Source of the DNA: Nemertoderma westbladi | Taxonomy: Eukaryota; Animalia; Xenacoelomorpha | Direction of reading: 5' to 3' | NCBI GenBank assembly: GCA_032718475.1 | Contig: JAUCBJ010001962.1 | Location: forward strand, 1 to 39,572 | Length of the DNA: 39,572 nt | Shown: one piece after another, positions 5,517 through 36,179 of the stretch | Position numbering within the stretch: position 1 is the first letter of the stretch | Layout of the letters: each line of letters begins with the position of its first letter | Notes under the pieces: model-generated | The model's database searches: none | Seen by the model: the letters and a program-made list of their open reading frames with translations, nothing else | Told to the model about the DNA's origin: nothing | Made by a program: the position numbers and the translations under genes

Positions 5517-6114
5517 TGTGAGCGGATTCAATTCCGCTCACTACCCCCATAAAGTTGGGAAGTGGCGCCTTTTTCAGCAATATTGGAGATACAAGATTGA
5601 TAACAACCAATCTCGTATCACACCCAATAATGGGGATAACATACACCCCAAAAGCCACACAAAGGGAGGTTAGAGGTCAAACCACCTCGAGAGGGCAGAT
5701 AACCAACAGCGGGGGGGGGGGGGGGGGGGCACTCCCACAGAGGTGAGAGGCGTGAAGTAGGTCATCAACCAATGGGAACCGGGGAAAAGTATCCACTGGA
5801 CAAAGGCCAAAGTAATGTAGGAATGAATACATATATTATCCCATTACCGGTCAGTTACCCAGTTTACTCAGTCATTCAGATCAGTGCAGACCGGTGATGT
5901 TTTTCACCATCACCGTCACCATCACCGATATCCTACCTACCGGTATACAATACACATATATTATCCATCACAACTGTGCTATCATTGACTATTCATTTCA
6001 TTGATATTAATTACTAAAGGATCAAAGAGATAACAACAAACTTTTCCCATTATTCTCAATATCACGGTGACGCATAGTTCGACAAACCGGTTGGGATCCC
6101 TTGATCCCATCACA
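5517..6114 (+). repeat. 5' LTR of A1
   Basis: TGTGAGCGGATTCAATTCCGC...GATCCCATCACA; TATA-like ATATATTA at ~5831 followed by TCAGT initiator-like motifs. Confidence 0.9.
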
Positions 6115-6142
6115 GTGAAAAACTCCCAACAACCCACAAACT

Positions 6143-8319: not shown

Positions 8320-9509
8320 TGTTCGCGCTTTCAGACCTTTAGCAGTTTAACCTGCCAAATTGGGATGTCTTCTAGATAATAGATCGTCTTTAGCCTATGA
8401 CAAGTATTTGATACACTACATTAGCCGAAGCCAGTCTATGCGCGATCATTCACCCGCTGGATATACCCGGGAGACTGGATTCGGGAGCCTAACCGTATTG
8501 CGGGGTAGGCCTACTGTATTATTCGACTGATCGTAATATATAATCTCTGACAAATATTATTCACTTTCGGGAAATATTAACAGTTCCTTTAGGACGTGGC
8601 GCTCTAAATATATAAACAGAGTTATGACTAAAACCAGACACAACGGGATGGCTATAGATTCACATATATGGCGCATTCTTTAGGAGATGCTTCGTTATCA
8701 ATCACGATCATACACAATACTGCACAATGCTGCACACCAATCTGCCGACCTTCACTAATTTTAGTCACATATAAGGAGAACAACAGACAATACGTGTAGG
8801 GCCTATAAAATAGCATTAGATTCACTTCAAACCACTTAATGTAAGTCGCAATTGTTATATGTAACCGGTCTCTCTAACCTTTAGTATATCAAGAAGATTG
8901 GGGTGTCTGATTATTTATCAGTATTCCAAATATAATATTCCATCAACAAATATAATGAATAACCGACAGTAAAAGCAGCAAATTGTTAAGGTATAAATTG
9001 ATATGATCGCTTTGTTAAGTATGTCAGTATGGTATGATTTGTTAAGTTAAGTGAGTTATGTTAAGATAACGGATATACGTTCTATAATTAAGCCTACTAA
9101 TGTTGAGCTAAAGACTGAAACACGGAGGTTCCACGCCGGTGTTGTAGGCTGTGGACAAATCACATACTGACTCAACTCCACGAGTTTCTATATACAATCT
9201 CTAACACAGAGGCAAAAAACGCTCTGATTGGTCGACCGAACAAAGAAGGAACAGAGAACAAAGAAAAGGTCCACGTATACAGCATCAGCTGTTAGCCGTC
9301 GTCATGGTAGCTACACTGTTTACAGAGGATTTGGCGCATTGCGTCATAAAATTGCTAATCATGTCCGCTAAAGTACACATACAGAAGAAATAGCTTTTAT
9401 GTCCTCTAAAACAACAGTACAGTAAGGACACGGCCTTTTATGCCTGTTAAACCAACTACAGAGTACTTTACGGGGAAAATAACCGGCTAATTACTCAAAA
9501 GCCTTTACA
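8320..9509 (-). repeat. 3' LTR of element B (1190 bp)
   Basis: Direct repeat of 20162-21355; about 13 substitutions and one 4-bp indel by eye. Confidence 0.97.
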
Positions 9510-9518
9510 CCGCTCCCA
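9510..9518 (-). promoter_or_regulatory. Polypurine tract of element B (TGGGAGCGG)
   Basis: Purine-rich run immediately before the 3' LTR TGT on the minus strand. Confidence 0.7.
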
Positions 9519-9587
9519 GAAAATGGGATTTAAGTCTATAAAATATAACAAATCACAGTTTCTAAAATATAAAAATACTCTAAACAG

Positions 9588-12500
9588 TTAGTCTTTCTTA
9601 CGCGGACGGCGTTTACGCAGTTTTTTGAGGCTAGCAAGAGTCCTCTTCTCTTTGGGGCGAGCCACCTTACTAGGAGGGCTGTAACTCCTGGGTGAAGGGT
9701 GCAATACAATTGCATCAGAAGGTTTAGGATTACGATCGGTGTATCCTCCGGTCGAGGTACCTGGTTGATCGATATCAACTTCAGTGGAGCGAGGTCTAAC
9801 GGCCTTTAGGGCGCGTCTTAGGACAGCAGCTCCTACGGGTCCTTGACGGGTCGTCTGGACAATGGCGGTAGGCGGACCGTGAGTGGTGAGAAACTTCCTT
9901 GGTTTAATGGTTCTTTCCAGCTCGCGTTCTCGGGCTCGATATTCGTAGGGCCGTCGAGATACTTCCTGTAACTCAGGGTGCGAGTTGATAAATAAATCGC
10001 CATACTCAGGGTCTTGACGGATGTAATTGATCAAATGGTATGAAGTAATATCCTTAGGATTGACGTTCCTAAGATATTTTCGAACAAATTTGGTGGAAAT
10101 ACACTCACCAACACGCTTCATTAGTTCGTAACTCGGTGTGCGTGTTTTTTGTTCCACAGACGCGAATAAATAAGGATGGAACGCGTAAACTCCCTCGTAA
10201 GAGCGTCCAGGGTAGTAGTGATGGCGGGCCTCACAATGTAAATCCGCGTTCACTTCCCAAGCTCGGATGTAGCGCAGGGTAATCATCTCATCTACGCTTT
10301 CTAAATCGCAGTTAAAGGGGCAATTATAACTGGCATGTCCTTTAAGTTGACAGTGGTGACATTGGGTCATAAATTGGGGGCAGACTGCAAAAATATGCGA
10401 GTTATTAAGTCTGCAATACGCACAATAGATCTCCATCATCGGCTGTTCGTGGAAATAGGAGCAGGGTACATCTGAGTCCATAGGGGTGAAATGGTCTCTC
10501 AATGCGCATAATCGACAACGTTTTCGAGAAACATAGTTGGCGTGTCGATAATCGTATGCGGTGAGACATTGTGGACCTTGATACCACTCCAAGACGTAAT
10601 CGTTATCGCTGCTCCGGGGCGCTGTAGGCTGGATCGCTTCAGACTCTAAGCAGATTGGTTTGTCTTCCAATTGCATAGCTGAGGTAGGTGCGGCTGTCTC
10701 CGCAAGCGGACCCACTGTCTGAACTTCCACGACAGAATAACCCGTGGGTATTCGGGGTCTTTGTATAACAGATGAATGTAAGTTCTGTACACAAACGTCC
10801 TGAAAGAGAGCAAATCCCGCGCTGTTTAGCTTCTCCGCAGCTGAGTCTCTTAGGCTGAGTTTGGTCAGAGCGCGGTCCTTGAACTGACTATCAACGTTAC
10901 GGAACGGAGTCAGAAAGCGCCTGAAACATTCGAAGCGGATGAATTTATTGTGTTCATCTAACTTGGCGAGTTTGGTTCCAAGTATTAATGGATGGGCGCG
11001 TATGGTACGACTGCACACATCGGCTAGCCAACCGGCAAGTGCTGCGTTTTCAAAGATCGTGTATATAGCTAAGGAGGGACGAAGTGGAACACTCATAAAG
11101 CTATACACGGCGCCAGGTGCGGTCAATGGTCCATCAAAGTATAAACGAGAATAATGATCTCCATATACTTGTTGGTAATTTATAGGATTTCCAACCTTGA
11201 AATTCCATCCGTATTCTTGAAAGGCAAGATGTCCGATGGAGGTTCGTTGTACTTTAGTAATGCCGCTGGGTGTATTGGCATACATAGTGCGGAAGAAACC
11301 TCGGCCTTCTGCCCAGGGAGCAATCAGCTGAGTATCCACGAAAGGGTATGGAATGTTCTCCATATTCCGAAAGTCGTTTTGTAGATCTCCATAAACAGCT
11401 GAGCCGATTTTAAGGATTCTTTCGTTAAACAACATCTCGAGCACGGGCTGGGGTAACATCGATCCATCGATACCCATGGCCGGTTTGCGCTCGGTGTCGG
11501 CGATGTAACGCTGCGCGAGCTCGAATTGTCCATGTCGGAGTTTCTTTTGCGTCTCAGTAAGAATTTCAAAGGAATAATCAATCACATCAGAACACGCTCG
11601 AGTAAATATGTGGGTAGAACCAGCGAGTCCTCGTATGTGTGTCATCCGCGTAGTTCCCAGTTCTCTAACCGGAACGCTACCTTCGTTGTCGTAGGTGACA
11701 ACTCCATACATCTCGATAACGTTAAGAGTCTCATTCCACTCTTTAGTGGCGTTTTCAAGGGTCATTCCCACAGGATGCCACAAGGTAGCGCATTCGCTAG
11801 CATTAGGTAGGTCTCTATACTTTAAATATTGTGTGGTATATGTTTCCACATCTCCATATCGTTGTATTCTTTCCTCCTCGAATAACACGTCAAGATTCCA
11901 GTGTACTAAACGAGTTTTGATGAATCCATCAAGATTATACGGAGGTATTGTTTCTTTCTCTATTCTGGAAACATTGTATGGTTTTTGAAATGAGTTTATT
12001 TTAACTAACTGATCCAGATGTTTATGCAGTTGTTCGAGTTCGACAAGATTGAGAGGATTTATGAGTGGTAGAAACCTCAGACTATGTGTAGGATCTTCCG
12101 GTTTTATCATGTAATATTGTGTTAGGTTGACGTAATAAGGGTGATCTTTGATCCCATAAAACGAGTCCAGTAAAGGTCTAGCGCGTATGTTTACATCGTG
12201 TACCATGCGACGGACAAGATCCGCTCTATTTTCCGGAGGTTCAACGAGTATACCATCGACACGAGCGGCTTCGATGGGTGGACGTTGCAACATGGGAGCG
12301 TCAGCGATAAGATCTCTAGATCTTAGGTTGATATCAACCGGTTGGGGTTGTATCGTCGCAAAGAGTTTGTCTCCGAAATGGGGAACCATCGAGGGATGAA
12401 GGATGGTTTTAGAGTAGAGATCCGTCATAAGGATTTGAGCTTCGGGTTGAGCTAAAGCTGCTTCTTCTCTCTCATCTAGTTCTATATGTCTCTCCTCGAG

Positions 12501-13535
12501 CTGATTTTCCTCTGCTTGTTGTTGTAGACGCTCATCTAGGAACTCTTGTAAAGAGTAGGTTCGTCCACGTTCGATGTCCTCCTCGAGATTTTGTATTTCT
12601 CTATCGAACTGGGGTAAAGCTAATTCCTTCACCGCTTGGACTTGTTGTTGCAATTTACGTTTCTCCAAACAATCGTAAGTTCCTTTTCCGATTTTCTGCC
12701 GAATAGCGTCTAACGCGTTTCGTACGACGCTCTCTTCGACTTCCGTAACGGGTTGTATCGAGGTGAAGCCGGGACGGTTGTGTGGGTTAAACGGCGATAT
12801 TAGATGACCGCATCCCAATCCAGCTAGGTAGGGTTGGCGAATATCTAGCGAGCCTACTACCGGAGTACCACCAATCAACTGTTTGGGTAACACTAGATCT
12901 TTGAACAGTGAGTACAGTTCGGGAGGATCCGTGATACTATTAGGATCAAGAGTCTGAGGTCTAACTGAGGAATGAGGAGGTCTGACCGAGTATTCCGGAA
13001 CTCTGATTATTGGTTTGTTCAAGGATCGTTTGAGTCGAGCAACCGTAGGGGATACGTCGAACAGGTTTCGCTCGAAACTCCCATAAGTATATCGTGTAAA
13101 ACTGTGTTTAGCGCAACGTCTCCGCGGATGTTTATGTCTTTCCGTTTGCTGATTGGGTCTAGGGCACTCGTCGCAGTAATACCAAAGACGCACGTCCTGC
13201 AGGGGAAACGCGGGTGATCGTTCTCCAGTTTTACAATATTCCTCCATCTGTTCGAAGCTATCTGGGACGACAGGTAGCGGTCGATCGGCGGTGAGATACA
13301 TCATAGTGAAATAGAGTCGTTTGAGTTCTATCATAGGGTCATGATGTATACCTTGGGGATATCGAGTTTCGAGATTTTGTTGACTGGCAATATTGAGGTA
13401 TGTCTCTCTCAGGAATTCCAGATAATCATTGAAGTCGCTGCGTTTATCCGGCTCTTCAACGTCTTCCCTTTCGAGTTTGTTTCGAATAGAGTTCTCGTGT
13501 TCGCTATGAACGCACAAATTCAACACAACTGCCAT
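9588..13535 (-). CDS. Accessory ORF of element B, 1315 aa: DEDD(y)-type 3'-5' exonuclease plus three CCHC zinc knuckles
   Basis: Uninterrupted ORF. ExoI VVTYDNEG, ExoII region LPQPVLEMLFNERILKIGSAVYGD..FVDTQ, ExoIII-like PLRPSLAIYTIFE. Knuckles CRLC..H..C, CAYCRLNNSHIFAVC and CHHCQLKGHASYNC; basic C-terminus. Confidence 0.85.
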   Translation of the reverse strand: MAVVLNLCVHSEHENSIRNKLEREDVEEPDKRSDFNDYLEFLRETYLNIASQQNLETRYPQGIHHDPMIELKRLYFTMMYLTADRPLPVVPDSFEQMEEYCKTGERSPAFPLQDVRLWYYCDECPRPNQQTERHKHPRRRCAKHSFTRYTYGSFERNLFDVSPTVARLKRSLNKPIIRVPEYSVRPPHSSVRPQTLDPNSITDPPELYSLFKDLVLPKQLIGGTPVVGSLDIRQPYLAGLGCGHLISPFNPHNRPGFTSIQPVTEVEESVVRNALDAIRQKIGKGTYDCLEKRKLQQQVQAVKELALPQFDREIQNLEEDIERGRTYSLQEFLDERLQQQAEENQLEERHIELDEREEAALAQPEAQILMTDLYSKTILHPSMVPHFGDKLFATIQPQPVDINLRSRDLIADAPMLQRPPIEAARVDGILVEPPENRADLVRRMVHDVNIRARPLLDSFYGIKDHPYYVNLTQYYMIKPEDPTHSLRFLPLINPLNLVELEQLHKHLDQLVKINSFQKPYNVSRIEKETIPPYNLDGFIKTRLVHWNLDVLFEEERIQRYGDVETYTTQYLKYRDLPNASECATLWHPVGMTLENATKEWNETLNVIEMYGVVTYDNEGSVPVRELGTTRMTHIRGLAGSTHIFTRACSDVIDYSFEILTETQKKLRHGQFELAQRYIADTERKPAMGIDGSMLPQPVLEMLFNERILKIGSAVYGDLQNDFRNMENIPYPFVDTQLIAPWAEGRGFFRTMYANTPSGITKVQRTSIGHLAFQEYGWNFKVGNPINYQQVYGDHYSRLYFDGPLTAPGAVYSFMSVPLRPSLAIYTIFENAALAGWLADVCSRTIRAHPLILGTKLAKLDEHNKFIRFECFRRFLTPFRNVDSQFKDRALTKLSLRDSAAEKLNSAGFALFQDVCVQNLHSSVIQRPRIPTGYSVVEVQTVGPLAETAAPTSAMQLEDKPICLESEAIQPTAPRSSDNDYVLEWYQGPQCLTAYDYRHANYVSRKRCRLCALRDHFTPMDSDVPCSYFHEQPMMEIYCAYCRLNNSHIFAVCPQFMTQCHHCQLKGHASYNCPFNCDLESVDEMITLRYIRAWEVNADLHCEARHHYYPGRSYEGVYAFHPYLFASVEQKTRTPSYELMKRVGECISTKFVRKYLRNVNPKDITSYHLINYIRQDPEYGDLFINSHPELQEVSRRPYEYRARERELERTIKPRKFLTTHGPPTAIVQTTRQGPVGAAVLRRALKAVRPRSTEVDIDQPGTSTGGYTDRNPKPSDAIVLHPSPRSYSPPSKVARPKEKRTLASLKKLRKRRPRKKD

Positions 13536-14033
13536 AAACTGTACACATTCGGGCCATTTGTCCGTTAGTCAGTACCTTCCAGAATGTCACTTTATTTATT
13601 ATGTATCCTTGGATACTAGCAGTGCGCTATTTATTCCCTATGCTATTCAATGGGGTAAGCCTTCTATTGTTCTTTTAACTCACTTCTAATTCTAGCGTGG
13701 TTGTTGCCATGGTGACATTATGGAAAGCTAGCGGTAGAATTAGGGTAATTCTCATGCATACAGATCTGGGATGCTATTTAATAGTAATTCTTTAATTGTC
13801 AATATCCTCTCTATATATGATTTTATGAATTTTATCGGCTATTGACTATATATTGGAGATTCTCGCACACTAATACACTTAATAGAGTGAATCTCCGCTC
13901 CCATGATCTATTAATTAATGGAATTTTGGGAATGTTATAAATTGTATAAAATGACAATTTATTAAATTCATTGAAATATATGAATTTAAATTTATTCCCG
14001 TAAATTTTATTATTTAATGTTAAATAGACACAA

Positions 14034-14845: not shown

Positions 14846-15195
14846 TTAAGTTGGGGAGTCCCTAGATGTTTGTTGGATTAGGGAGGTGGTCGTAGGAAGA
14901 GTATCTTGCCTCCCATAGTTTCCGGAGAGTTCTCTGTCTCTTTCCAGTAAACATAAGCGACCAACTGGGCGATTGAGCTGCTGTGTCTCGAAGACAATTC
15001 CCGGTTTCTTGAAGTTACGTCGCATGACGACGAGTTCTACCGATCGCACCAAACCATCATCCGAGATGTGAGTCTCGATGATACGACCTGTCTGCCACCG
15101 CTTACGTGGAAGATCTACATCCACAATAAGAACCATGTCTCCAGCGCTGACGTTTTCTTGCTGCGCAAACCACTTAGTTCGAAGTTGTAGCGTGA
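14846..15195 (-). pseudogene. pol: BEL/Pao pol C-terminal remnant (DUF5641-like integrase tail)
   Basis: TLQLRTKW..GDMVLIVD..PRKRWQTGRIIETHISDDGLVRSVEL..RPVGRLCLLE. Confidence 0.9.
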
Positions 15196-16889
15196 ACTCT
15201 GATATTCATGAGACTTACCTAACCAATCTAATTGTCTACAGATCTCTTGAATCTCATCGGAAAACTCTATTATCCCGCTGCTAATGAACTTTCGGGGCGC
15301 TACTAATTTCGCATACAAATATTTAGCTATATTATTCCTATTACCATACCTGATGTTTAGTGTATCCCAAACTTGTCTTAATCCGTCTGGATGTCCAATA
15401 AACTTTAACGCCATTAACTTGGGAGATCCTTCCAAGCACTCGATGAGGAATCTAAGTTTCTCTCCATTAGATAGTACAGAGTTCTGTATGTTATCTTTAT
15501 AATATTCATTAAAAGGTAACCATTTCATCTCATCTCCATTGAACTTGACTATCTCTCCCACCTTTACCGCTTGACGTGCTTCGGTTCTAGCCATTTGACG
15601 CGTAAAACTTTCTTGGGCCATCGTGTTATTCAATATCGAGTTATCGGTATATAAATTTCTCGGATTATGATCAGGTCTATAGGGAATATCATTATCAACA
15701 GGTCTATAATTACCCTTAATAGGGTTCACTATAGGAGTTTCTACTTCGCTAGCAGTATATATGCGTGTAGGCTCCACACATTGCGCATGAGATACTTCAG
15801 ACCTAACAGGTTGACACATTGTTACAGGGGGTGGTGGTATACCTCGTTGTGTATTTACTAATTTATATCGCTCTAAAGCGATACTTTGCTGCACTTCTTG
15901 CAACTCTAACCTACTTTCCCTTACTGTGCCCTTGAATTGCTGAACAGTCTCCTGCATCTGCCCGAGCAGGAGATCCATCCCCCGTCGTCTCTCATCCACC
16001 CACTCGACCGCCGAAGCGGGAGCCGCCAACGTTGTAGCGGGCCGACGAGGGACAACGGGCAACAAATCATTAATATTTCGCTCGGAGTCCAGGACATGAG
16101 CATTTTCAAGGGTGGTTCTGTGTGGCACAGATAGCTTAGTGCTGTGCAGAGGGAATTTAGAGGTAGGTTCAGGGAGTACAGGTGTCTCTATCACCGAAGG
16201 AGTGGCTTCGGGAACAGGCCTAATTATTTCAGGCTCATCTACTATAGTAGGGAGTCTTTCTATTTCAATTATTTGGTCTGTGGGTTCTGTACTACCTAAG
16301 TTTGTGTTATTTAGTTGCTTTCTAACAGCTGGGGGCAAATCCGGCAATTTCTGGCGGTGGGATATTCTTCTACGTCTGCTTAGGCGAGATCGATTTCCTC
16401 CGCCTTCAGGATCGGTGGTATCGCCTTCCTCAGATATGTATTATATCCCTGTCTTTTGGGAGTTGATCGACTCATCATCTGCATATTACTAGCTGTTAAC
16501 TGTTTATTAAAGTTGTCTTGCTTCTCTTGGAGATTTTCCAACTCTAGTTGGGCGATCTCTTCAGCCGCTCTCCGTTCTGCTTCTGCCACCGCTATCTTTC
16601 TTTCCGCTTCTGCCGCTGCTGCCGCTTTTGCCTCCGCTGCTGCCGCTTTTGCCTCTGCCGCTGCTTCTGCCGCTGCCGCTTTTGCCTCTGCCGCTGCTTC
16701 TGCCGCCTTTCTTTCTGCTTCTGCTTCTGCTGCTGCCGCTGCTGCTATCTTTCTGTCTTCTATACGTTTTTTCTTTACTTGTTCTTCTAAGTTGAGTTGT
16801 TCATCAAATTTAGCTTGGTTCGCAGCTCTCATATCCACATCAATGGCGTCCAACACGCTGGGTTCCTTCACTATTAGGGCTAAGTCCAT
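15196..16889 (-). pseudogene. gag: gag of element B (Ala/Glu coiled coil, DUF1759-like capsid), frameshifted and C-terminally deleted
   Basis: IVKFNGDEMKWLPF..LSNGEKLRFLIECLEGSPK..WDTLNIRYGN; frame change near 16445; zinc knuckles absent. Confidence 0.85.
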
Positions 16890-17910
16890 CTAGCCTTCTC
16901 CTCAACTCTTCATCACCTAAAAAACGTTGATAGTCTGACAGATAGATGTCAATGGCATCCCTCTTATGCGGTTTCTCTGCCGTCGCTTCACTTTCCACTT
17001 GTGAAAAAGTAGCATCTGTTGATTCTCCATGGGTTGAGCGCTCATCTAGCTGAGCTTTCCACTGAGCTGTTCCTTGAACCTGGAGACTCACCCGTTGAAA
17101 CCAAGTCTTTACGGCAACTTGCAACGACGTGTCTTGTCTTCTTTTAGAAGCCTCCTCAAAGGCCGATAAGATTAGCCTGATTCGTAGAATTCTTTCTCTA
17201 ACTTGATAAAGCAGCTGTCCCTGCTCTTGAGGTCCTTGGGGTTGTTGAAACAGTTGTTCTTTTAATCGCTCCATGGAGCTGAAGAATCCCTGTGCGTATC
17301 CTACTGCGGACCTCTTCCACACAGCTGGATCGATGGTTTCTTTGGTTACTCCCATCCTGTGTATGTCTTCCCACGCAGCTTCTGATAAATCAAACGGGAG
17401 TCCGGGTCCGGGGAAGTTCCATTGCGACTCGACAATAGACTTCAGTTCTTCCCTTGTGTATCCCGCATAACTATCTTTAGTCGATCGCTTATTTCTCGCC
17501 CAATTGATCTGGTGTTCTTCCACTGCAATCAATAACCTAGTGAGTACGGCTGCAGGAAGGATAAGAAGGGGATCCGAATAAACCGCATCCGTCCTCTTTG
17601 CTCCACGCTCGGGTGTCAGCTCTATAGTATCCTCACTACTGGAGCTGTCGGGCCGTTGAGAAATAAGTTCTTGGCTCGCGGGTTGTTGCTGTTCCGCTGC
17701 TTCTTGGTCCCGCTTGACCTGAGCTCGAGTGCCTATGATAGACCTACGATGTTGGACTAGCCTAGGGTCTGATATTACTATGGGAGGGATGATCTTTCTT
17801 ACAGTAGGAGGTGAGTTGAACTTCGGTCCTACTCGTTCCACACTCCTGTCTGGGTCACATATGGTTGTATCTAGAAGACTGTCTGACAGGTTTTGCTTTG
17901 TGTCAGACAT
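16840..17910 (-). CDS. 356-aa upstream ORF or Gag N-terminal extension of element B, function unknown
   Basis: Open frame from ATG 17910, first ORF after the leader, overlapping the next ORF by 50 nt; no motif recognised. Confidence 0.55.
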   Translation of the reverse strand: MSDTKQNLSDSLLDTTICDPDRSVERVGPKFNSPPTVRKIIPPIVISDPRLVQHRRSIIGTRAQVKRDQEAAEQQQPASQELISQRPDSSSSEDTIELTPERGAKRTDAVYSDPLLILPAAVLTRLLIAVEEHQINWARNKRSTKDSYAGYTREELKSIVESQWNFPGPGLPFDLSEAAWEDIHRMGVTKETIDPAVWKRSAVGYAQGFFSSMERLKEQLFQQPQGPQEQGQLLYQVRERILRIRLILSAFEEASKRRQDTSLQVAVKTWFQRVSLQVQGTAQWKAQLDERSTHGESTDATFSQVESEATAEKPHKRDAIDIYLSDYQRFLGDEELRRRLDGLSPNSEGTQRVGRH

Positions 17911-19243
17911 GTTGGTTTGTACAGTTGAATGCCTACTGCTATATTACAGTTTAAGCAAGCCTAGTAATTCAGTATCACTGTTAGCCTAGTAATTAATTAC
18001 CGATACTGCTACTCAGTGTAGCATGATATATATATAATATATTAGAATACCGGTATGCTTATAGTATATATATATAAGTATTGTCACAGACTAGATTTGT
18101 CACAGAATACCGGTATGTAATTCCAGCACAAGTATATATAAATATATAATAGGCCTATCGTGAATACCGGTATAGATCTTACCACTTATAGTATATATAA
18201 GTATAATTATTAACTAGAATTAATTACAGAATACCGGTATAATTTCAGCCTAAATTTATAGAAATAAATATAATAAGCCTATGGTAAATACCGGTATGTC
18301 AATTATTTTAAATAATTGAATTTCTGAATTAGGGGTTACTTGGTTACTTTAATTTACTTTATTACCGTTATTTGAGCAGTAGTCCAACTGATATTGAGAC
18401 CTAGTTGTTGTATGGCAGGCCTACTATTTATAAATCGGTTTGAGTTGATTTATAATATATATACCCGTTATAATGGGTTTTTGTCAATATTTGAAATAAA
18501 TGTTATTATTTCTGGGGGGAGTCACTACACAGAAGCTGTGCGCTCTCAGTGAAGTGTTACTTGTTGGACACTAAAACAAATAATTCTAATTTACCTAAGT
18601 TACTTAATACTACAAATTACGTACAATTCGGGTGAAATTACAATCTCTAAATAAACACAAAAATTACAAGTACGAATTTTTAGGGTAATTTTACAAGAAG
18701 TCTACTAACCAGCCTAACAAAGGGTTAGAATATCTGGTTATTACAACGGACAGGTTACTACGGTATTTGAAAATAATAAGTAGTAGTAAATATACTGCGT
18801 TGTCCAGATAGAAAAATACCACCGTCTGACGACTTATAGCCGTATCGCTATAAGTACTACGTTATGTATCACGGAGTGTTCCTACCTAGAAGTTAATTAC
18901 CGCGGTCTACCAGAACCAACGTGCCTATTAACCACTTTACAACACAAATATACTGCCTACACACTAATCACCTTCGGAAAGCACTGTACACTAAACCCTA
19001 AATTAGGTACAAGTACTTATACAACAAATAACTAGCAGTTAGAAATACTTGAACAGCTAAAAGAACCACGGTATCTGCCGGAGTGACCAAAGCATAAAAT
19101 CTCCAGTCTTTACCTACGCCAAGCAGCCCTGATGTAGTACCGGGGTTAGTTTAACTGTAACGGTATATATAACAAGCACAATTACTGTAGGAATAAACTT
19201 GGGGAATGAATGTTGCAAATAATCGCATAAACTCTGAATAATA

Positions 19244-19810
19244 AATATTACGCTGCGCGTACAGACTACTCAAACAAAATGCAGACCAAATGATGACAGA
19301 CTACTATCAAGCACAAACAAACTACGGTATATGCAGACTCCGAAATGGTTAGTTAGTATGCGTTCTAACCGAGTAGTATGACTTATTCTTTCGAGGGGGT
19401 TTACCTCACAGCTCTGGAAGCCCCTACGTTCCCAACTGGCACTTTATCGGACATACACTCTACACACACCGAAATCTCTCAAGACCCAACAACAGCCAGA
19501 CAAAATCCAGCCTACAAATTATCTAAGTAAGAAATATTACGCTACCCGTACAGACTACACAAACAAGGTACAGACCAAACGCTGGCAGACTACTATCAAG
19601 CCTAAATACACTACAGTATATGCAGACTCCGAAATGGTTAATTAGTATGCGTTCTAACCGAGTAGTACGACTTATTCTTTCGAGGGGGTTCACCTCACAG
19701 CACTGGCAGCCCCTACTTTCCTAACTAGTACTTTTTCGGACATATGCTCTACACACACTACAGTCTCTTCAGACCTAACAACAGTCAGACAACAGTCCAG
19801 GCTACAAATT
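19244..19810. repeat. ~289-bp tandem duplication in the long 5' leader of B
   Basis: aatattacgct..gtacagactac..gcagactccgaaatggtta..ttattctttcgagggggtt.. occurs twice (from ~19244 and ~19533). Confidence 0.85.
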
Positions 19811-20149
19811 GTCTGTACAATCTGAGCAGGCTTACACGCCTTCTGCTCAATGCTGGCCTACAAATAAATAAAACTGACAGAAATAAGTAAGCTCCAAAAG
19901 AAACAAGGGGTGTACAGTCCCTAATCTCTTAAACAGCCTACCGGTATACAATTTCACAATCGAATAATACTGCTGTACCTGTACTGCTGTAGGTACCGGT
20001 CCGGGTGGTTAGGTAGTCAGGCCTACTAGGTACCGGTTAACCGGTACTTCAGCTTTATTGCCTACTGCAATACAGAAGCGTATATCCGTTATTGTTCTTA
20101 CCAGAACAATATTAAACTGTATTTATTGCCTACACCGCAATCCGAACTT

Positions 20150-20161
20150 TATATCCGTTAT
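20150..20161 (-). promoter_or_regulatory. PBS position of B (ATAACGGATATA), non-tRNA, complementary to its own LTR
   Basis: Abuts the 5' LTR end; reverse complement of LTR segment 20912-20923; no TGG start. Confidence 0.75.
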
Positions 20162-21355
20162 TGTTCGCGCTTTCAGACCTTTAGCAGTTTAACCTGCCAA
20201 ATTGGGATGTCTTCTAGATAATAGATCGTCTTTAGCCTATGACAAGTATTTGATACACTACATTAGCCGAAGCCAGTCTATGCGCGATCATTCACCCACT
20301 GGATATACCTGGGAGACTGGATTCGGGAGCCTAACTGTATTGCGGGGTAGGCCTACTGTATTATTCGACTGATCGTAATATATAATCTCTGACAAATATT
20401 ATTCACTTTCGGGAAATATTAACAGTTCCTTTAGGACGTGGCGCTCTAAATATATAAACAGAGTTATGACTTAAACCAGACACAACGGGATGGCTATAGA
20501 TTCACTCACGTATATGGCGCATTCTTTAGGAGATGCTTCGTTATCAATCACGATCATACACAATACTGCACAATGCTGCACACCAATCTGCCGACCTTCA
20601 CTAATTTTAGTCACATATAAGGAGAACAACAGACAATACATGTAGGGCCTATAAAATAGCATTAGATTCACTTCAAACCACTTAATGTAAGTCGCAATTG
20701 TTATATGTAACCGGTCTCTCTAACCTTTAGTATATCAAGAAGATTGGGGTGTCTGATTATTTATCAGTATTCCAAATATAATATTCCATCAACAAATATA
20801 ATGAATAACCGACAGTAAAAGCAGCAAATTGTTAAGGTATAAATTGATATGATCGCTTTGTTAAGTATGTCAGTATGGTATGATTAGTTAAGTTCAGTGA
20901 GTTATGTTAAGATAACGGATATACGTTCTATAATTAAGCCTACTAATGTTGAGCTAAAGACTGAAACACGGAGGTTCCATGCTGGTGTTGTAGGCTGCGG
21001 ACAAATCACATACTGACTCAACTCCACGAGTTTCTATATACAATCTCTAACACAGAGGCAAAAAACGCTCTGATTGGTTGACCGAACAAAGAAGGAACAG
21101 AGAACAAAGAAAAGGTCCACGTATACAGCATCAGCTGTTAGCCGTCGTCATGGTAGCTACACTGTTTACAGAGGATTTGGCGCATTGCGTCATAAAATTG
21201 CTAATCATGTCCGCTAAAGTACACATACAGAAGAAATAGCTTTTATGTCCTCTAAAACAACAGTACAGTAAGGACACGGCCTTTTATGCCTGTTAAACCA
21301 ACTACAGAGTACTTTACGGGGAAAATAACCGGCTAATTACGCAAAAGCCTTTACA
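20162..21355 (-). repeat. 5' LTR of element B (1194 bp)
   Basis: Direct repeat of 8320-9509. Minus-strand TATATAGA (~21040) lies ~26 nt upstream of a TCAGTA initiator-like motif (~21014). Confidence 0.97.
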
Positions 21356-21360
21356 GGGAG

Positions 21361-22107
21361 GACTTCTTGGATTATTCGAGAAGGTTAAACTTCGGTCTGG
21401 AGGGACACATACAGACTGCAGGACATACTGTAGGCCTTACTGCACATACTATAGGCCATGCTGGGAGAGATAGTGTAGGCGATAGGGTAGCGCGGACAAC
21501 GGGATTAAACCCGGAAGTCGCGGAGTATATACCGGTAGGTAGGCCAGAAGAGGATAGGCATATACCGGTACCAGCACAGCAGTATGACTATAACATGCAG
21601 GGACATAACATATATCCAGGGGAAGGGAGAGTTATTGCGGATAGGTGTATGGGCCCCAATATATTAACATCAACCCCAGTACCAAACATACCACTGGTGG
21701 GGGGGGGGGGGGGACAGGGTGACATTCCCCCATTACAATATCAACAATATACTCAAACAGAAATAAGAACATCGAACCCCATGGATGACAACAGATCTTG
21801 CGACCGGAAATATGGAGGGGGCCGTTACCCCCAATGTTATATCCGACGCAAAGGAAGGCAACAGGCCGGACGGGCGGACCGCACCCAATGGGAGAATCTG
21901 TACAGCATCCTTCGAACCCATTGGAAGCACAGGCGATGGGAATGGCTACATTAATCGATGCACTCAAGACCAGAATCGAGCTACCACCCGTAGAACCATT
22001 TAAATTCGACGGAAGTAGGCCGGAAGAATACCTGCAATTTCGGCGCATGTACAGCAACGAGATATTAACCAAGAACCTGACGCTGGCAGAGTGCCTAAAA
22101 TATCTAC
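21361..22107 (+). pseudogene. gag: Continuation of A1 gag into the start of the capsid domain
   Basis: IELPPVEPFKFDGSRPEEYLQFRRMY..LTLAECLKYL matches the BEL/Pao capsid start (DUF1759-like); frameshifts upstream. Confidence 0.75.
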
Positions 22108-22339
22108 TATTAACTGAGTTCCTACAGTATATATCAGTTACATTATATTAACTGAGTTGCAACACCGTTGAACCTAAACCGAATTGTTATTTCTATTTAC
22201 CACAATATTATTTATATATTATTATTAATTTTTATTCCGACTGAAAATTTGTCCTCCAGGTAAATCGACGTTACTCAATAACTGGCAATTATAAAAAAAC
22301 AATGGAGGTAAAAATAAAGTATTGGAGACTTCTATCTCT

Positions 22340-23763: not shown

Positions 23764-24608
23764 TTAGTTAAAAAAATTAATGGATGGCGAGTTTAAAGTT
23801 TTATTATTTATAGGAAACTGAATTCCGTCTTTAGTATAAACTAATACAACTGAACCCTTTCCTACGGCTATATAGGAGCTGTTGGGAGAGAAAGTGAATG
23901 CTGATAAACTGAAACTTTCTAACTCAGTAACTGGGAATCCGTCTTTAGTTACTTTTACTAACCCACTGTATAACTTATCGTTACTAAACCCATAAACAAG
24001 AATAATTCTAGAATCAGGTAAAAATTTCAACCTACAACCCACTGGGAATTCGCCCCCAACCGAATGATTCCCGGTTAATATATCGGTAAGAACTAATTCA
24101 CCACTCTCATCTAGAGTTGCTACTGTATTGTTAGAGTTTAATGCTACTAACTCACTAATCTTAGACCCCGGATTTGGAACTAAACTACGGAGTAATTTAC
24201 CCGGTTTCTCAAAAAACCATTTGTAAAAATTTCCAAATAAACCGGAATCATCCGAATCTTTATAACTCCACACACTGAGTTTATCAGCCGCTATACTAAC
24301 TAAATAGCTCAATGGAGCAACAAATACTAATCCCTCTACACATTCAGTAGACGTTGTTGGTAAAGTAATAAATTTATTATTATAATAAACCCGTATAATT
24401 CCATTGCGACACCCGTAAGCGAAAACCGGTTGGTTTTCTATTCCAGTTAATGAAGATATCGGACTCTCTTCGTCTTTATTTAGTTTAATATTCCCTTCCA
24501 TATCCATTATATGGAGGGAGTCCCACATATCCGCTGCTATGGTAACCGGTTCCGTATCTAGAACAGCTCGAACCCCGAGGTATCCAGTTAGTTTACCACC
24601 GCTGGTTG
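23764..24608 (-). pseudogene. WD40/beta-propeller-like ORF interrupted by the A2 LTR
   Basis: About 280 stop-free codons in AT-rich DNA with WD40-like blades (ISSL..FAYGCRNGIIRVY; VEGLVF..LVSIAADKLSVW; LSAFTFSPNSSYIAVG). The first ~29 codons of the called ORF are antisense LTR. Confidence 0.6.
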
Positions 24609-25155
24609 TGTGAGCGGATTCAATTCCGCCCACCACCCCATAAAGTTGGGAAGTGGCACCTTTCAGTAATATTGGGGATACGAGGTTAATCCCCAATTAA
24701 CCTCGTATCACACACCCAATAAACGGGGACAACAAACCCCGAAGGGCCACACAAAAGGGAGGTCAGAGGTTAAACCTCCGGGCGGGGAAAGTAACAGCAG
24801 TGGGGGGGGGGGGGGGGGGGGGGGGGGCAGGGAACGCATCCGCTAGGTTCAATGGCCATAAGTAATGTAGCTAACCAATATATATTACCGGTCAGTGCCC
24901 ATCACAATTTCAGTTATCTCAGTTATTCAGGGCAGTACGGTGACACTTTATACCATCACCGCCGTCACCAATTATTATCTATATTACCGGTCAGACACTG
25001 TGCTATCTGTTATCTGCTATCTTTGTATACTATAACCACTACTGTCAGAGTTTATCAATAATATCGGAACAACAAACTCTTTCTTTTCCATCACACGGTG
25101 CAGCCTGACGCGTAAATAAACCAAAACCCAGTCTGGATCCTCTGATCCCGTCACA
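24609..25155 (+). repeat. 5' LTR of A2
   Basis: TGTGAGCGGATTCAATTCCGC...GATCCCGTCACA; TATATATT at ~24879, TCAGTT at ~24910, AATAAA at ~25116. Confidence 0.9.
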
Positions 25156-25261
25156 GTATAAAGTCACCGACTGGCCTAGTTACTCAGTTACTCAGTACGG
25201 TCACAGTACGGCTACTGACCCTAAAGAACTGTGACTGCCAGCCACCAGAAGGATAGACAGG

Positions 25262-27330
25262 ATGAGCGAACCCCGAGACTTAGAGGGAGAGACGACACCA
25301 CCGCGGACCCCGGATGATACGAACGAAATGATCCACGTGGCCGCGACAAGACAGTATCGACCCCAACACTGTCTACCAGAGCGGGAGGAAGAGTCAACGC
25401 GCGACAGCGCACGAGGTACCGATGTCGCCGGACAGCCACAGGCCGAGGGCGACGGACGGCCCACCGGAACGGCGACGGTGCGGCCGCCGGTACGATGCCG
25501 AACCAGGAGGGGAGAAGGAAAGATCGGCGATGAGGACGTCGGAACCAGCGACCGGCTCCGACGAGCCTACAACGCAACCAAGAAACAACTCAAGGAGGCT
25601 AGGGAAGGTGTAAAGATAGATCCAGGAAAGTTAAACCAGCGGCTAGGTGAGTCGAACAAACACTTTAAATACCTAGTTCGCTTCGGGCAGGGAGAACTAG
25701 CCAGTGAGAGAGCGAGGGGGGTCGCCACCGAACTATTTGAACTGTGGCGATCCAGGATTATGGAGCCCCAAGTTGTGTACATAGGGCCGTATTTAGTGGA
25801 TGCGAGGGGTATTAAGTTAGTGGGTTGGGCAGACCCGCACGAGGGCGAATCCGAGATTAACCCCGAGGATTCGGTCTCGTCGGTTAGCGAAAATCCCAGA
25901 AAGCGGGGGAAAGTTAGCAGGACGGAGAGGCGATGGGAGTCCGTCGCGACCGACAAGTCCGCTACATCCTCCGCAAAAGTAAGAAGGGTGTTAGAATTAG
26001 ATCTGGCGTGCCAGTTGGATATGGTGGTGCTAGACCAAAAGGAGTTAGAGAGACAGTTGGAAGAGGGGAGTGCATTGTTAGAGAAAGAGAGAGAGTTGGC
26101 GAGGGAGTGTAAATAGAGGGCCGAAAGGGTGGCGAATGAGCGTGAGGCGAGAGAAACGAGAATAGAGAAAGAGCGCGAGGAACGAGAGATGAGAGCAGAG
26201 AAAGAGCGCAAAGAACGAGAAGCGAGAGAGGCAGAATTTGCGGACCAAAGTTTACGGGAGGATAGAGAGAGAGAGAGAGCGGGGAAGCATATGCGGGATG
26301 ATATGCATGCCCGGTTAAGGGGGCTTATGCAATATCAGGCCAAACAGAAGCGCCGATTGGAACTGGCGTAGTTGGGGCTATCAGAGAGCGAGGCTGGCTC
26401 GGATAGTGTTTATGAGGAGCCAGAAGTTATGGAAACGTTTGTTAATACCCCACTTACAGGGACCGGACGACAGACCCAAGACTGGTGTAACCGTATGGGC
26501 GGGGGTTGTGGGGGGGGGGGGGGGTATTAATAATACGTTAGAGAATGTTGATATTAATAGTGCCGTAGTGGATAACCCTAATCAAACTTTCATTGCAGGA
26601 AATAATATTTTGCCTGATTATTGCAATTTAAATCCGAACGATCCTAGTTTAAATGTAGAAAATAACTCAAATAATAATATAGATTCGAATTTACAAAATA
26701 ATTCAAATAATTTAAATACGCAAAATAATCTAAATAACAATCTTAATTCAAACGAACACTCTAACCAAAATATAGAAAATATTTTAAATAATAATCCGAA
26801 TTCAGAAAATAATTCTAATAATATTTAAATAATTTGGAAAATAATATTAATAATGGTGCTATTAATGTAAACGCAGCTAATGTAGGTGGTCCGACCAGCG
26901 GGGGCCTGGTGTGCAGGGGCGTGCTAGTGTGCAGGGAGTAACGGGGGTGAGAGACCCCGAGGTGGGCCTGGTAGGCCACGTAGTTAGTACGCAGGGAGTA
27001 GCGGGGTTATCATTCCGACGGGAGCCTGCCAGGCAACGCAGTGATAGAGGGAGAGGCGGGGGTGAATAGACCCAGCTGCAGTAGAGTTAGTGCATCGACT
27101 AGAGAGGGGTGTAGAAGCGAAGTAAGAGATAGTGAAGTGATAGGTGGCGAGTGGGGGGGGGGGGGGGCTACAGGAGCCCCACAACGAGAGATTAGCGGCG
27201 AGAGGGGGGGGGGGGCAGAGAGTGTCCCACAGGCGTCGGCGGATAATGCGCAGGGCAAATTAGGTGAACCGCAGCACCCGGCGATGGAGAATAGTAGGGG
27301 GATTACGAGTATCACCAGCGGCGTGCGACC
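25262..27330 (+). pseudogene. gag: Degenerate gag N-terminal region of A2
   Basis: Homologous to A1 6350-7900 (INPEDSVSSVS, coiled coil, Asn-rich tract); stops at 26114 and 26369; capsid and knuckles deleted at ~27330. Confidence 0.75.
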
Positions 27331-30300
27331 AGCTGATGCTGGTCGACAGTGGAGCAGCCTCCACATTGGTCGAGAATTGGGTGGCCGAAGAGATAGGATT
27401 GAAGACGAGGCCAAGTAGAATGGCGGTAACAACCATCTCCAGCAAAGATGAGGTCCTGGAGATGAGGACTGGACGGTGCGGGATAGCAGCGATAGCACCG
27501 GGATGCGATTATGGGGCGACAATCAACCCCATCCAGGTGATAGAGTCGATAAATATCAATGCCAGGCGACCAACCAACATCGAGGTCGAACAATATAGAT
27601 TCCTGGACAGCATCGACTTCTCAATACCAGAAGTGGACGTTAGGAAGGTATCCATTATAGTAGGAATGGACTGCCCGACGGCCCACGAGAGAATGCAGAC
27701 GGTCTTCGGTGAAGACAGACAGTGTGACCCGGTGGCGATTTTAACACCATTCGGGTGGATGCTGAGCGGCCCAATCAGAACCAAGATACCGTTTAGGATG
27801 TCGGAGACATCAGGATGCATGTTCGCGGGAACTATGCGGGAGATGGAAGATCAGGGAGCGGAGGAGCAGCTCAGGAGACTGCTTAGGCAGGATTTTGAGG
27901 GTTTTAAAGAGACTGGGGTCGGAACCTGGGCAGAAGATAAACAGGCTATGCAAAGCATAAAGGAGTCGATGAGATGCGATGAGGGGCGGTACACCATAGG
28001 GATGGTATGGAAACAACCAAAATTACCGTTGCCCGACAACAAAGGAATGGTACTCACGAGGCTTCGTAAGTTGAAGCAAATGCTAAAACGAAGCCCCGGA
28101 AAGAATGAGTACATTCATAGAACTATAAGAAAGTATGTCTAGAAAGGATGGGCCGTGGAGTTACCGGTCGACGAACCGAAAACGGACAGGACCTATTACC
28201 TACCACTTCACGTGGCTTTAGACCCGAAGAAAGGTAAACTGCGGATGGTAGTTGACGCATCGGCCAAGACTAATGGCAAATGCCTAAACAATTATCTGCT
28301 AGAGGGTCCCAACATCTACAACTCAGGGATCGAGGTCCTACTCAGATTCAGAAACGGGAGGCATGCCTTCACTTGTGACATGGAAGGCATGTTCAACCAA
28401 GTCCGTGTGACGGAGGAGGATAGCGACAGCCAGCGCTTCCTATGGTACAACGTCGACGAGGAACAGTCGACAATACTGATGTACAAGATGGTGGTGCAGA
28501 ATATGGGGCCCAAGTCGTCCTCATTTACGATGACTGTGGCTGTAAGGGACACAGTAGAGGGGAAAGAGGAGAGTTACAGTGCCAAAGCCGTCGATATGAT
28601 TCGACGCGGCTTCTATGTAGATGACGGGATGGAGTCTGGAAACACGGTTAAAGAACTACTGAATACAGGGCGCGAGGTTCGCGACATCCTGAAAGGATCC
28701 GGGTTTAACCTGACCAAGTTCCAATCCAGCTCGGAAGAGTTTATGAGAGCCATAGAGGACAGGAGGCCAGAGTCGACCATGGATAATCCCACGACAGCCA
28801 AGGGACAGGACATGGCAAACAATAGGGTAGAGTCCCAGCAGAAGGCATTAGGGATCGTGTGGAACTGAGAGACAGACGAGTTCAAGTACCAGCTGAGCCA
28901 GGAGGGCGCGGACATCCACACAAAGGGGGGCTATGTATCGTATGTAGCAAGGATATACGATCCCCTAGGCCTAGCATCCCCACTATTAGTCATGGGAAAG
29001 CAGATACTTAAGAAAGTATACAAGCTAAAGGACGAATGGGATACAGAGGTCCCGGAAGAGATCAGCAAGCAGTGGAGCAAGTGGACAGAGAGTTTAGAAC
29101 AGATGGGGACATACAGCATGCCACGCGTGTATTTCCCGGATGGGGACATAACGAATCTGGATCTGCATATGTTCTCCGATGCGTCATTGGAAGCATATGG
29201 AGCGGCACTCTACCTAGTACAACGAGAGGGGGCCCATAAGCCCAGACTTGCATTCAGCAAAGCAAAGTCGACGCCCCCAGATTCAGCATTGGTCCCAAAA
29301 CTCAAGTTGACAGCTGCGAGATTAGGAGTAAGAGCCACAGCATACTTGATGGACACTATTCCCAACATAGTGGAAACATACTACTGGACGGACTCCATGG
29401 TAGTGCTTGGTTGGCTACACAATGAGAAGATGAGATACCCTATATTCGTCGCAACACTTTGTGGTACGCCACACTTTCTTGAAGAAGGAAGTATTGTGGC
29501 AGCACGGGCCGCAATTCCTGAACGATAGGACAGCCTGGCCACCGATGAAGAAGGTGGACCCGGGCTCAGAGGAAGTGGTATTAGAGGAAGAGGGAGGAGA
29601 CTCAGAAGGTGAAGAAATAGTCAAATGGTGAGGGAGATCAGGGACGTGCAACCAAAAATGGAAGAACTATGCGATAACCCGATGGACAAACTCCTCAGCT
29701 ATAGCTCAAGTTGGTACAAGACCAAGAAGTTAGTGGCGTAGTAGAGAGCCTTCGGGAATTTCCTCAAGGGAGTCGGTAAAGACACCAAAAATAAACCAAA
29801 CATCGATCTGGAGGGAGCGGCCAAGGCTGTCATTCGTTACGAACAGGGAAAGAACTATGGCGAGGAAGTGGAGCACGTCGGTAAACAACAGCATCTCCGT
29901 CGGGACAGCGAGCTTATCACGCTGTCGCCACAACTTAATGAAGATGGGATCTTAGTAATGAACTCTAGAGTGCTAAATAACAACAGCCTCATTTTTCCTC
30001 CAAAACCCATCATCATCCAGAATAGATCGCCGATAGTCCACCAGATCATCTGGGACTCCCACAAGTCAATATTGCACGGGGGCACCAACCGGACTCTCAC
30101 GGAGATAAGGAGGACCTTCTGGATCACACAGCTAAGGAAGAAGGTGAAGGCGGTAGTGGGGCAGTGCCAGACCTGCCAACGGACGAGGAAGGAGCGGGCC
30201 ATACAGGAGATGGCGCCATTACCGGCCTTAGAAAGGTTCAGAGACCGCAAAGGTGGGACGATCGCAGTAATATACTCCGATAATGGAACCAACTTTGTGG

Positions 30301-30986
30301 GGGCGGAGAACGAGTTGGCAGAGGCCTTGGACATCCTGGAAGGGGAGGAAGTCAGGGCAGCCATGAGGAGACGACAGGTGAAGTGGGAGAGGAGGACGCT
30401 GTATGCTCCGCATACTCTAGGATGCATCGAGAGACTCGTGGGTAGTTCCAAGCGTCTGATGACGAAGCTGATGAACACCCACATTGTGACAGAAGATGTA
30501 CTAAGGACGGTACTAGCTAAGTGCGAGGGTATCATTAATAGCAGACCGCTATACCCAGAAAATGATGACCCAGAGTCATTAGATGTGCTGACACCCAGTC
30601 ACTTTCTAATGGAGAGGTCGGCGACCATTGACATGCGGGGTGTAGACCCAGACGATATATACTCCCGACAGAGTTGGAAAGTCGCTAAGGCGATAAGCGC
30701 GGAGTACTGGAGGAGGTGGGTCGAGGAATATCTACCCACACTTCATAGGAGGAGCAAGTGGAGAAATACCACTAGGGAGTTGAAGAAGGATGATCTGTTG
30801 ATCGTCATGGACGATACCATCATCAACAACCAATGGAGATTGGCAAGAGTAGTGGACACTTACTCCGATGAGGACGGAAGAGTCCGATCGGTAGAAGTGC
30901 AGATAGGTGGAAAGATAGGAGCGAAAGATAGGAAGACCTACAGGAGGGCTGTAGGAAAATGCTGCCTGCTAAAGGGCGCACCGTAG
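27331..30986 (+). pseudogene. pol: BEL/Pao pol (aspartic protease, RT, Pao RNase H, integrase, DUF5641-like tail)
   Basis: LVDSGA; YYLPLH..KLRMVVDASAK..LNNYLLEGP; CDMEGMFNQV; FYVDDG; LHMFSDASLEAYGA; H..HGG..CQTC; YSDNGTNFVGA; WRRWVEEYLPTL..DGRVRSVEV. Several stops and frameshifts, and an in-frame deletion in the integrase core at ~30224. Confidence 0.95.
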
Positions 30987-31665: not shown

Positions 31666-32092
31666 TGAGTAGCGAGAGGGGGGCACGTGGGTACAGCTAG
31701 GCAGATCGTGTAGGCCACACGAGATATACTGCTGAACTGCACAAGCCCATAGAGTAGACCAGAATATGGATTAGAATAGAAATAATCTATTAGTAAATAC
31801 TGATAGCACAGTTGTAGAATTAAAAATTAAATATTAGAAATTAGAAATTAAACAAATTATGGTAACAGTAAGAAAAATATTCCAGAACATAATTAAAGTA
31901 ACGGACAAAATTACGAAATTTAGTAAAAATTAGCACTTTTAGGGAATAAGATGGGAAAATTAGGCAATAACCTGACATTCAGCGAGAGATAGGCCATTAT
32001 CGGACCGCAGAGACTATCCAAACTTCATCACTCATCTATATTGTGCCTTGGCAAGGCCCCACCTTATAGGTGAGCGATCGAGAGAGTTCGAA

Positions 32093-34080: not shown

Positions 34081-34720
34081 AATTCAGGAAATGTGCGCAC
34101 GTTTGCGACAAATAGTTCATCGCTAGTGAAAACCAAATCTAGATTACTCGAGCCACGGGTAGGCTCGTGTTGTAACTGGGTTAAACTTGATTCTAACAGC
34201 AGCGCTGCGACGCGTTCATAAAGTTCGGTATTTGGGTAGATACTTTCCTTCCAGTTGAACAAAGGAAGATTGAAATCGCCAGTGATAACGCACGGGTAGT
34301 TAACATCCGATAGTAAAGACAGTGCATCGCATAGTAAGCTGCTGTTATCTGGAATCAGTAAACGCGATGGGGGTCGGTAGGCGCACACGAATCTGGACGG
34401 CGCTTTTCCAAGTAGATCGATGGCGACCACTTCGGCATCATTATAGGTGTTGGGTAGGTTTACCCGTACACAACGAAATTGATCGCGAACTAAAATTATG
34501 ACTCCACCACCATCCCTAGTTTTCCGGTCATTGCGAAACATATTAAAGTTTGTGCTAGATGTGATCATTGTATCGGGTATAGTCTCGTTCATCCATGTTT
34601 CTGTAATCGCGATGATGTCGTAACTAGTCTCCTTGAGAAATACTCCTAGATCTGACAGTTTATTTTTCAGCGAACGGGCGTTTAAGCAGCAGCAGTTTAG
34701 GATTGGTGTTTTTTTATGAT
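34081..34720 (-). pseudogene. LINE ORF2 apurinic-like endonuclease domain (truncated)
   Basis: LNARSLKNK, DIIAITETW, FRNDR..GGGV, YRPP, ITGDFNLP, PTRGSSNLDLVFT; breaks before the SDH motif. Confidence 0.92.
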
Positions 34721-34835
34721 TCTCTCCCCCTATTGGTTTTCCAAGGGCGGTGAGGCCTCCGATGAATTGTTGGTAGGATCCGAGACTGGTACATGGGTCC
34801 ACGTTTTATTGCGTTTCCATTTACCATCAGAGTGT

Positions 34836-35909: not shown

Positions 35910-36179
35910 TGCAGCAGTACCGGTACGGTAGGTATTGTTGTATAATGCAGTAATGTATAACCATCCAGTTCACAGTTGCACCGTAGGCTGTAGGCTGTAG
36001 GGCTGTAGCCTTCAAAACCAGAATACAGTTTTTATATGCAACAGTCAGATATCTGTAGCAAAAAATATTGATAGAAATCATTTACCTTCTATTTTATTAT
36101 CATTTTATTTCCTTATTTTTTGACTGAACATATAAAATATAATATGCACCACTGAACCAACCACCCTCCTGGAATGCAG

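Follow-up and report, generated by a model that had tools for sequence, protein, structure and literature searches.

Organization of element B

The window analyzed here is a stretch of 39,572 nucleotides from Nemertoderma westbladi, contig JAUCBJ010001962.1. Element B, a BEL/Pao derivative, runs from 21355 to 8320 on the reverse strand. Its 5' LTR (20162-21355, 1194 bp) has TG...CA ends, begins with TGTAAAGG and terminates in GCGAACA. The 3' LTR (8320-9509, 1190 bp) and the 5' LTR are 98.6% alike, with 16 differing columns. A 5-bp TSD, CTCCC, is present on both flanks, so that the LTR pair and the TSD set the LTR ends independently, as the first-pass annotation of this DNA had stated. A purine-rich tract at 9510-9521, directly before the 3' LTR, is the likely PPT.

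The gag region was found in three frames at 15115-17943 and contains a DUF1759 domain at about 15543-15202 (E 2e-10). It adjoins a C-terminal integrase piece (DUF5641, 14936-15205, E 5e-16). Membership of BEL/Pao is indicated by the presence of both domains and of both TG..CA LTR ends and a 5-bp TSD. A tblastn search with five pol proteins revealed no PR, RT, RNase H or integrase core inside the element. Element B is thus a recently moved, internally deleted and non-autonomous BEL/Pao derivative. No relatives of the window elements were found among the viral contigs searched.

ORF3 of element B (9588-13568, reverse strand, 1326 aa) is intact though pol is deleted. It encodes a putative exonuclease with a DEDDy-like 3'-5' exonuclease region at about 11456-11016 and CCHC-type knuckles. 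A related ORF3 with the same two features follows the pol of family A copy 3 (A3) at about 32072-34065 on the forward strand. A search with the middle part of ORF3 gave one homologue (P0021, E 2e-6) among 1.84 billion proteins, and a whole-length search gave no match. The sole PDB matches of a three-sequence ORF3 profile were EXD2 and RNase D, both weak (E 0.2-0.3). The Exo I D-x-E and Exo II D residues were aligned in all three sequences. A Pfam exonuclease match was weak for P0021 (E 0.2) and absent for ORF3 of element B, and the fold prediction for ORF3 (pLDDT 35) was too low to use.

Surrounding sequences

Element B sits within another gag-like stretch (7905-8319 and 21356-22107, forward strand), which comes after family A copy 2 (A2), beyond the end of the A2-A3 match. 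A 38-bp tandem array (4843-5519 and 22108-22164) is split by the nested A2/B block. Upstream of it lies a piggyBac-like element with inverted ends near 2049-2091 and 4716-4758, and its transposase (2786-4639, forward strand; DDE_Tnp_1_7, E 7.5e-79) has one in-frame stop near 3247. An intron-free frame of 310 aa at 23764-24696 (reverse strand) had no Pfam match, but beta-propeller-like repeats were seen by eye. A 3'-truncated LINE (34029-35969, reverse strand), with an endonuclease and an ORF1 that has a Cys-rich finger, cuts off the ORF3 of A3. Units of about 160 bp at 38613-39301 alternate in orientation and form long inverted repeats.

The primer-binding site of element B

Most LTR retrotransposons carry a primer-binding site (PBS) for a host tRNA. 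The 12 nt abutting the 5' LTR end of element B (PBS 1, ATAACGGATATA, 20161-20150) are instead the exact reverse complement of TATATCCGTTAT, a segment of the 5' LTR at 20923-20912 on the reverse strand. The same segment is found in the 3' LTR at 9077-9066, and the 12-nt complement reported in the first-pass annotation was thereby seen at both places. The complement halts exactly at the LTR end. TATATCCGTTAT is the predicted 3' segment of a self-primer, and the predicted cut is between 20912 and 20911 (AT^C). None of the four PBSs of the window, those of element B and of family A copies 1 to 3 (A1-A3), is a TGG-type tRNA site. Judged by TGG, the 18-nt PBS for a host tRNA 3' end that characterizes BEL/Pao is therefore absent from all four. 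The window contains no tRNA gene, and no Rfam match was found over 19800-21500.

From the LTR composition, 2.4e-4 matches of 12 nt are expected by chance. None of 3000 LTRs simulated with a Markov model contained one, and none of 200 shuffles did so under a null that also permitted a spacer of 0-5 nt and spliced matches. The rarity first claimed for the match was upheld, but the figure then given, 7e-5, presumes equal bases. Complements of at least 11 nt in the last 150 nt of the LTR and the following 300 nt were limited to PBS 1, a second copy of it and one site at +192.

The second copy is a diverged repeat of the LTR end (GAACA) and PBS at 20079-20097, 69 nt downstream. It offers a 14-nt complement at 20092-20079, with GAACA just before. 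A second "ACA + PBS" is present in element B (+69 nt) and also in A1 (330-341, +30 nt). When the whole leader of element B is folded in silico, the primer pairs with the second copy of the PBS (P 0.95), although it is site 1 at which the 3' LTR stops. Pairing beyond the core on its 5' side did not exceed shuffles at site 1 (66-230/500).

Other copies of element B were surveyed as contigs from four runs aligned on the LTR, a type of data that cannot show RNA starts or ends. B-family sequence was very abundant. Substitutions in the primer region (20910-20952) all stayed below 8% in the four runs, compared with 21 rows at or above that level in 20953-21058, on the basis of summed contig depth, which can mask variants. 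The block shared by the copies stops 2 nt past the primer, and summed depth drops about hundredfold just 3' of it. Position 20917 was changed in five contigs, where a G-U pair would remain. Conservation of the PBS was checked in part, on 40 of 302 rows of variants. Four contigs lacked the second PBS, with the LTR end still joined to the first, and contigs one base shorter at the second copy (20079-20097) also occur.

Family A

Three copies of a second family are present in the window. A1 lies on the reverse strand, with the LTR at 984-369, the primer segment at 588-580, the PBS (GTGATAGAA) at 368-360 and a second copy of the latter at 338-330. A2 and A3 lie on the forward strand. Their LTRs are at 5517-6114 and 24609-25155, their primer segments at 5899-5907 and 24945-24953, and their PBSs at 6115-6123 (GTGAAAAAC) and 25156-25164 (GTATAAAGT), respectively. 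The LTR ends (TCACA) were set by homology, the window containing no family A 3' LTR. The three LTRs are mutually 61-68% alike. Their first 21 nt are identical, and a long poly-G tract is found at the same place in each (750-790, 5711-5729 and 24802-24827).

The pol of A3 (27264-30986, forward strand) has the order PR, RT, Pao RNase H, IN and is interrupted by stops and frameshifts. The PR-RT-RH-IN order is thus present but broken in A3 and deleted in element B. The Pao peptidase A17 was matched at E 5e-40, and 19 of 19 homologues were of BEL/Pao type. The A3 pol is not a Ty3/gypsy chromovirus pol, by which Tf1/sushi elements are recognized.

In each family A copy, the 9 nt after the LTR can pair exactly with a segment that lies 202-211 nt upstream and is aligned among the copies. 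Six of the nine primer/PBS positions vary among the copies, and all changes are compensated. The PBSs of B, A1, A2 and A3 match their own LTRs over 12, 9, 9 and 9 nt, and the cross matches are 4-7 nt. A single 9-nt match by itself has a p of about 0.001-0.004. Imperfect pairing extends about 30 nt further 5' in A3 (0/500 shuffles), and in A2 extended pairing was not above shuffles. In the predicted fold of A2, the primer is in a local hairpin rather than on the PBS.

The LTR of element B gave no blastn match to the family A LTR (E<1e-4), in agreement with the first-pass annotation. Its claim that the "same" PBS occurs in both families holds for the arrangement and not for the letters, which differ. 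It was also correct that the arrangement rather than the sequence is conserved, since each PBS fits its own LTR with letters that differ per family. Both families are BEL/Pao and both have an exonuclease-like ORF3. They are therefore related by descent, and inheritance is the best reading of the arrangement they share, with element B not an independent origin.

BEL/Pao relatives

A survey of BEL/Pao relatives for PBS-LTR complementarity had been proposed, and 80 BEL/Pao loci were obtained from one metagenome scan. LTR ends were set by LTR pairs in 12 rows (11 families). The test permitted a spacer of 0-5 nt and GT..AG splicing in data and shuffles alike. A self-complement of 10-13 nt was found in 10 of the 12 pair-defined rows (0-2/200 shuffles). 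It is contiguous in L002, L004, L011, L040 and L070, and present solely across a predicted LTR intron of 77-164 nt in L019, L022, L034, L045 and L066. For L019 and L040, a first pass with the LTR end placed at a CA gave no match, and the end used here is the point where the LTR pair diverges. L044 and L075 have TGGTC...TCGAGCCGG sites, which we take to be of tRNA type, and no self-match.

Eight further rows had ends taken from homology or from the match itself, and six of these passed. L053 had a 17-nt complement across a 107-nt GTAAGT..TAG gap. For five rows with scan-set ends the null is too lenient, and the self-complement was not significant in L057 and L060. Among 18 scanned loci without defined LTR ends, three (L012, L046 and L076) beat all 30 shuffles. 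The remaining loci were too short or were repeats of the same families. Self-complements in both the window elements and their relatives support the earlier proposal that the arrangement points to tRNA-independent priming.

The 3' end of the primer is A(C/T) before C in 15 of 20 significant rows, element B included; the 20 rows are mutually related, and the 15 are not independent events. The A(C/T)^C context suggests a shared cut site. In 15 of 16 relatives the primer is followed by AATAAA or ATTAAA, a count without a null; B, A1 and A2 have neither signal at that place. A signal 3' of the primer is the order that strand transfer after the cut requires. In a tree made by a quick method from 80 rows, with 17 loci left out as short or interrupted, the self-complementary metagenome rows all fell in one 62-row branch (support 94). 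Both tRNA-type rows were outside this branch, as was A3, on a long branch (2.29) whose placement is unsure.

Promoter, leader length and splicing

A candidate promoter is present in the 5' LTR of element B at 21012-21077 on the reverse strand, with the start predicted by motif. The TATA/Inr-like pair of the first-pass annotation was confirmed as TATATAG (21040) and TCAGT (A at 21014), and is accompanied by CCAAT at 21077. The fifth base of the TATA is variable among the contigs, at 17-50% of depth in three runs. From the TATA-like motif to the primer end the distance is 129 nt in B, 73-79 nt in A1-A3 and L070, 43 nt after splicing in L034 and about 180 nt in L066 and L019; it is undefined in ten rows. 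The predicted position of the paired segment is 35-90 nt into the transcript. With a start at the candidate promoter and no splicing of the leader, the primer of element B would be about 100 nt, the last 12 of them paired. A length of 45-50 nt is predicted in family A. Splicing, or a start lower down, would make these primers shorter.

The first-pass annotation took such an internal position to imply a different way of making the primer. This does not follow, as a Tf1-type cut should free a 3'-OH whatever lies 5' of it. An internal primer would need no new chemistry, and a longer 5' part would leave the cut unchanged.

The primer of element B might nevertheless lie near the 5' end, after removal of a leader intron or from a lower start, a variant of the preferred explanation that we regard as rather unlikely. 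A weak candidate intron of 86 nt runs from GTATGT at 21013 to TAG at 20928. Without it the distance from TATA to primer end in B would be 43 nt, equal to that of L034, and half of the ten self-complementary pair-defined relatives, as well as L053, match only across a GT..AG gap. A distant copy of B retains both flanks of the candidate intron, with 93 different letters replacing 95. Against this, the match in B is contiguous and no junction improves it. The candidate donor is only 27 nt past the TATA, which puts it no further downstream than the predicted start; in L034, the TATA is 36 nt before the donor, which would give a first exon of under 10 nt. The candidate acceptor has 52% pyrimidines and two upstream AGs, compared with 60-84% and 0-1 in six relatives, and pairing with the second PBS extends into the would-be intron. 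The 73-79 nt of A1-A3 and L070 leave too little space for an intron, and no splice-junction pairing was found in A or B.

Comparison with known systems

The PBS of the yeast element Tf1 is paired with transcript nucleotides 1-11, which RNase H severs from nt 12 (PMC7175516). For Tf1/sushi elements self-priming has been described, and for TAR and Tcn1 of plants it has been predicted (PMC6317226, PMC4600332, PMC5341516, 10.1101/2022.12.06.519325, PMC3601003, PMC6934838, PMC5443660). The window elements resemble Tf1/Tf2/Tj1 and Tf1/sushi (Ty3/gypsy) in having a PBS right after the 5' LTR, a complement of about 11 nt to their own LTR and no tRNA site (PMC7175516, PMC4600332, PMC5341516, 10.1101/2022.12.06.519325). 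They differ in being BEL/Pao and not gypsy, and in the predicted internal position of the paired segment, which is nt 1-11 in Tf1. Furthermore, the cut is predicted here, relatives build the segment across a predicted intron, and a limited search over the 76 nt after the primer revealed none of the duplexes that flank the PBS in the Tf1 "pretzel" (8 tests, best 20/300 shuffles). Self-priming of TAR (Houba, Osr-1; copia) and Tcn1 (gypsy) of plants was predicted by the same test, at least 10 nt at 0-5 nt from the LTR, a threshold that B reaches with 12 nt and family A, with 9, does not (PMC6317226). These belong to other superfamilies and hosts and are likewise prediction only.

The window elements share with Belpaoviridae the DUF1759 gag, the Pao RNase H, the DUF5641 integrase end, the PR-RT-RH-IN order in the broken pol of A3 and TG..CA LTRs of 0.5-1.2 kb (PMC8742986). 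The ICTV profile of that family gives host-tRNA priming from an 18-nt PBS for tRNA-Arg or tRNA-Gly, whereas the window elements are without such a site (PMC8742986). Likened by description, the bdelloid LTR elements Juno and Vesta also carry an additional ORF downstream of pol that includes an RNase D-like region (PMC5408684). They belong to other LTR lineages, and the ORF3 of element B has 1326 aa and CCHC knuckles. The word "BEL" occurs 0 times in PMC5408684. Among the LTR groups of animals, BEL/Pao ranks second in abundance (PMC3118150). Look-up by term in the accessible text of four BEL/Pao surveys gave no discussion of the PBS (PMC3118150, PMC554778, PMC6238403, PMC8220671).

Literature searches, outside subscription papers, supplements, Repbase and GyDB, gave no report of a self-priming BEL/Pao element. 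What would be new here, as judged from sequence, is the extension of a known self-priming mechanism to BEL/Pao. Priming of Cer7 and of the Oikopleura Tor elements may provide further leads.

Probable self-priming and alternative explanations

On the sequence evidence, the arrangement is genuine, exceeds chance by far and belongs to a feature of the whole lineage. Element B likely primes reverse transcription with a fragment of its own RNA and not with a tRNA. A transcript would begin in the 5' LTR, and the LTR segment at 20923-20912 would fold back on the PBS. The RT/RNase H of an autonomous partner would then cut just past the duplex, as in Tf1, so that the primer is freed by one cut. The freed 3'-OH would be extended across the 750 nt to the cut, and plus-strand synthesis would copy the primer into a new PBS. 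By this copying, primer and PBS would stay exactly matched as the LTR drifts. Self-priming is supported by the 12-nt match, the covariation in family A, the recurrence in distant relatives and the A(C/T)-then-C context. A simple form of the model has against it that B is without RT/RNase H and the sole family A pol in the window is broken, that no pretzel duplexes turned up in the limited search, that folds prefer the second PBS (B) or a hairpin (A2), and that AATAAA/ATTAAA past the primer is missing in B, A1 and A2.

The primer could instead be an RNA 3' end, either the element's own or that of short LTR transcripts, annealed to the PBS and trimmed to the duplex; the ORF3 exonuclease might do the trimming. 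A DEDDy-like ORF3 in both families, the high abundance of B-family sequence with a shared block ending at the primer, and the lack of a canonical poly(A) signal in the B LTR would fit such an origin. We consider it improbable, as poly(A)-type signals follow the primer in all but one of 16 relatives, and the exonuclease is putative, its predicted fold being of very low confidence. In addition, pol and the 3' LTR are at most 250 nt apart in six self-complementary relatives, which leaves no ORF3 in them, and trimming by ORF3 would thus not be needed. In A and B, such trimming is possible.

It is very unlikely that the pairing is a structural element, acting in packaging, dimerisation or a translation switch, while the primer is a small host RNA acting at this site or close to it. 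The extended imperfect pairing of A3, the local hairpins that family A is predicted to form around the segment and the second PBS copy in B and A1 could be so explained. However, the exact match ends at the LTR end or with a spacer of 0-4 nt, and the tRNA-type relatives have no self-match. Because the letters differ in every family, no single host RNA could fit all sites. A functionless chance match or local duplication is hardly credible. The LTRs are repeat-rich and one 9-nt match alone would not be very rare, but all four window elements and 10 of 12 relatives match, each with its own letters, and the covariation already contradicts chance.

Implications

Taking self-priming as the preferred reading, a wider proposal, to which we give an even chance, is that a large branch of animal BEL/Pao elements has swapped tRNA priming for self-priming, in which the cut is sequence-specific (A-C/U then C). 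Primers of this branch would range from about 15 nt, host-spliced, to capped leaders of about 100 nt, as in element B. Neither tRNAs nor tRNA fragments would be needed for priming, and in some families the spliceosome would act as its gate. If true, self-priming would have arisen independently once more in this branch, by a mechanism worked out only in Tf1, and the spliced families would link splicing to replication. The self-priming reading predicts an RT/RNase H that cuts RNA-RNA with a sequence preference. A self-priming branch would account for "missing" PBSs where LTR finders fail, and primer-PBS covariation together with the A(C/T)^C end would provide a simple annotation test for such elements.
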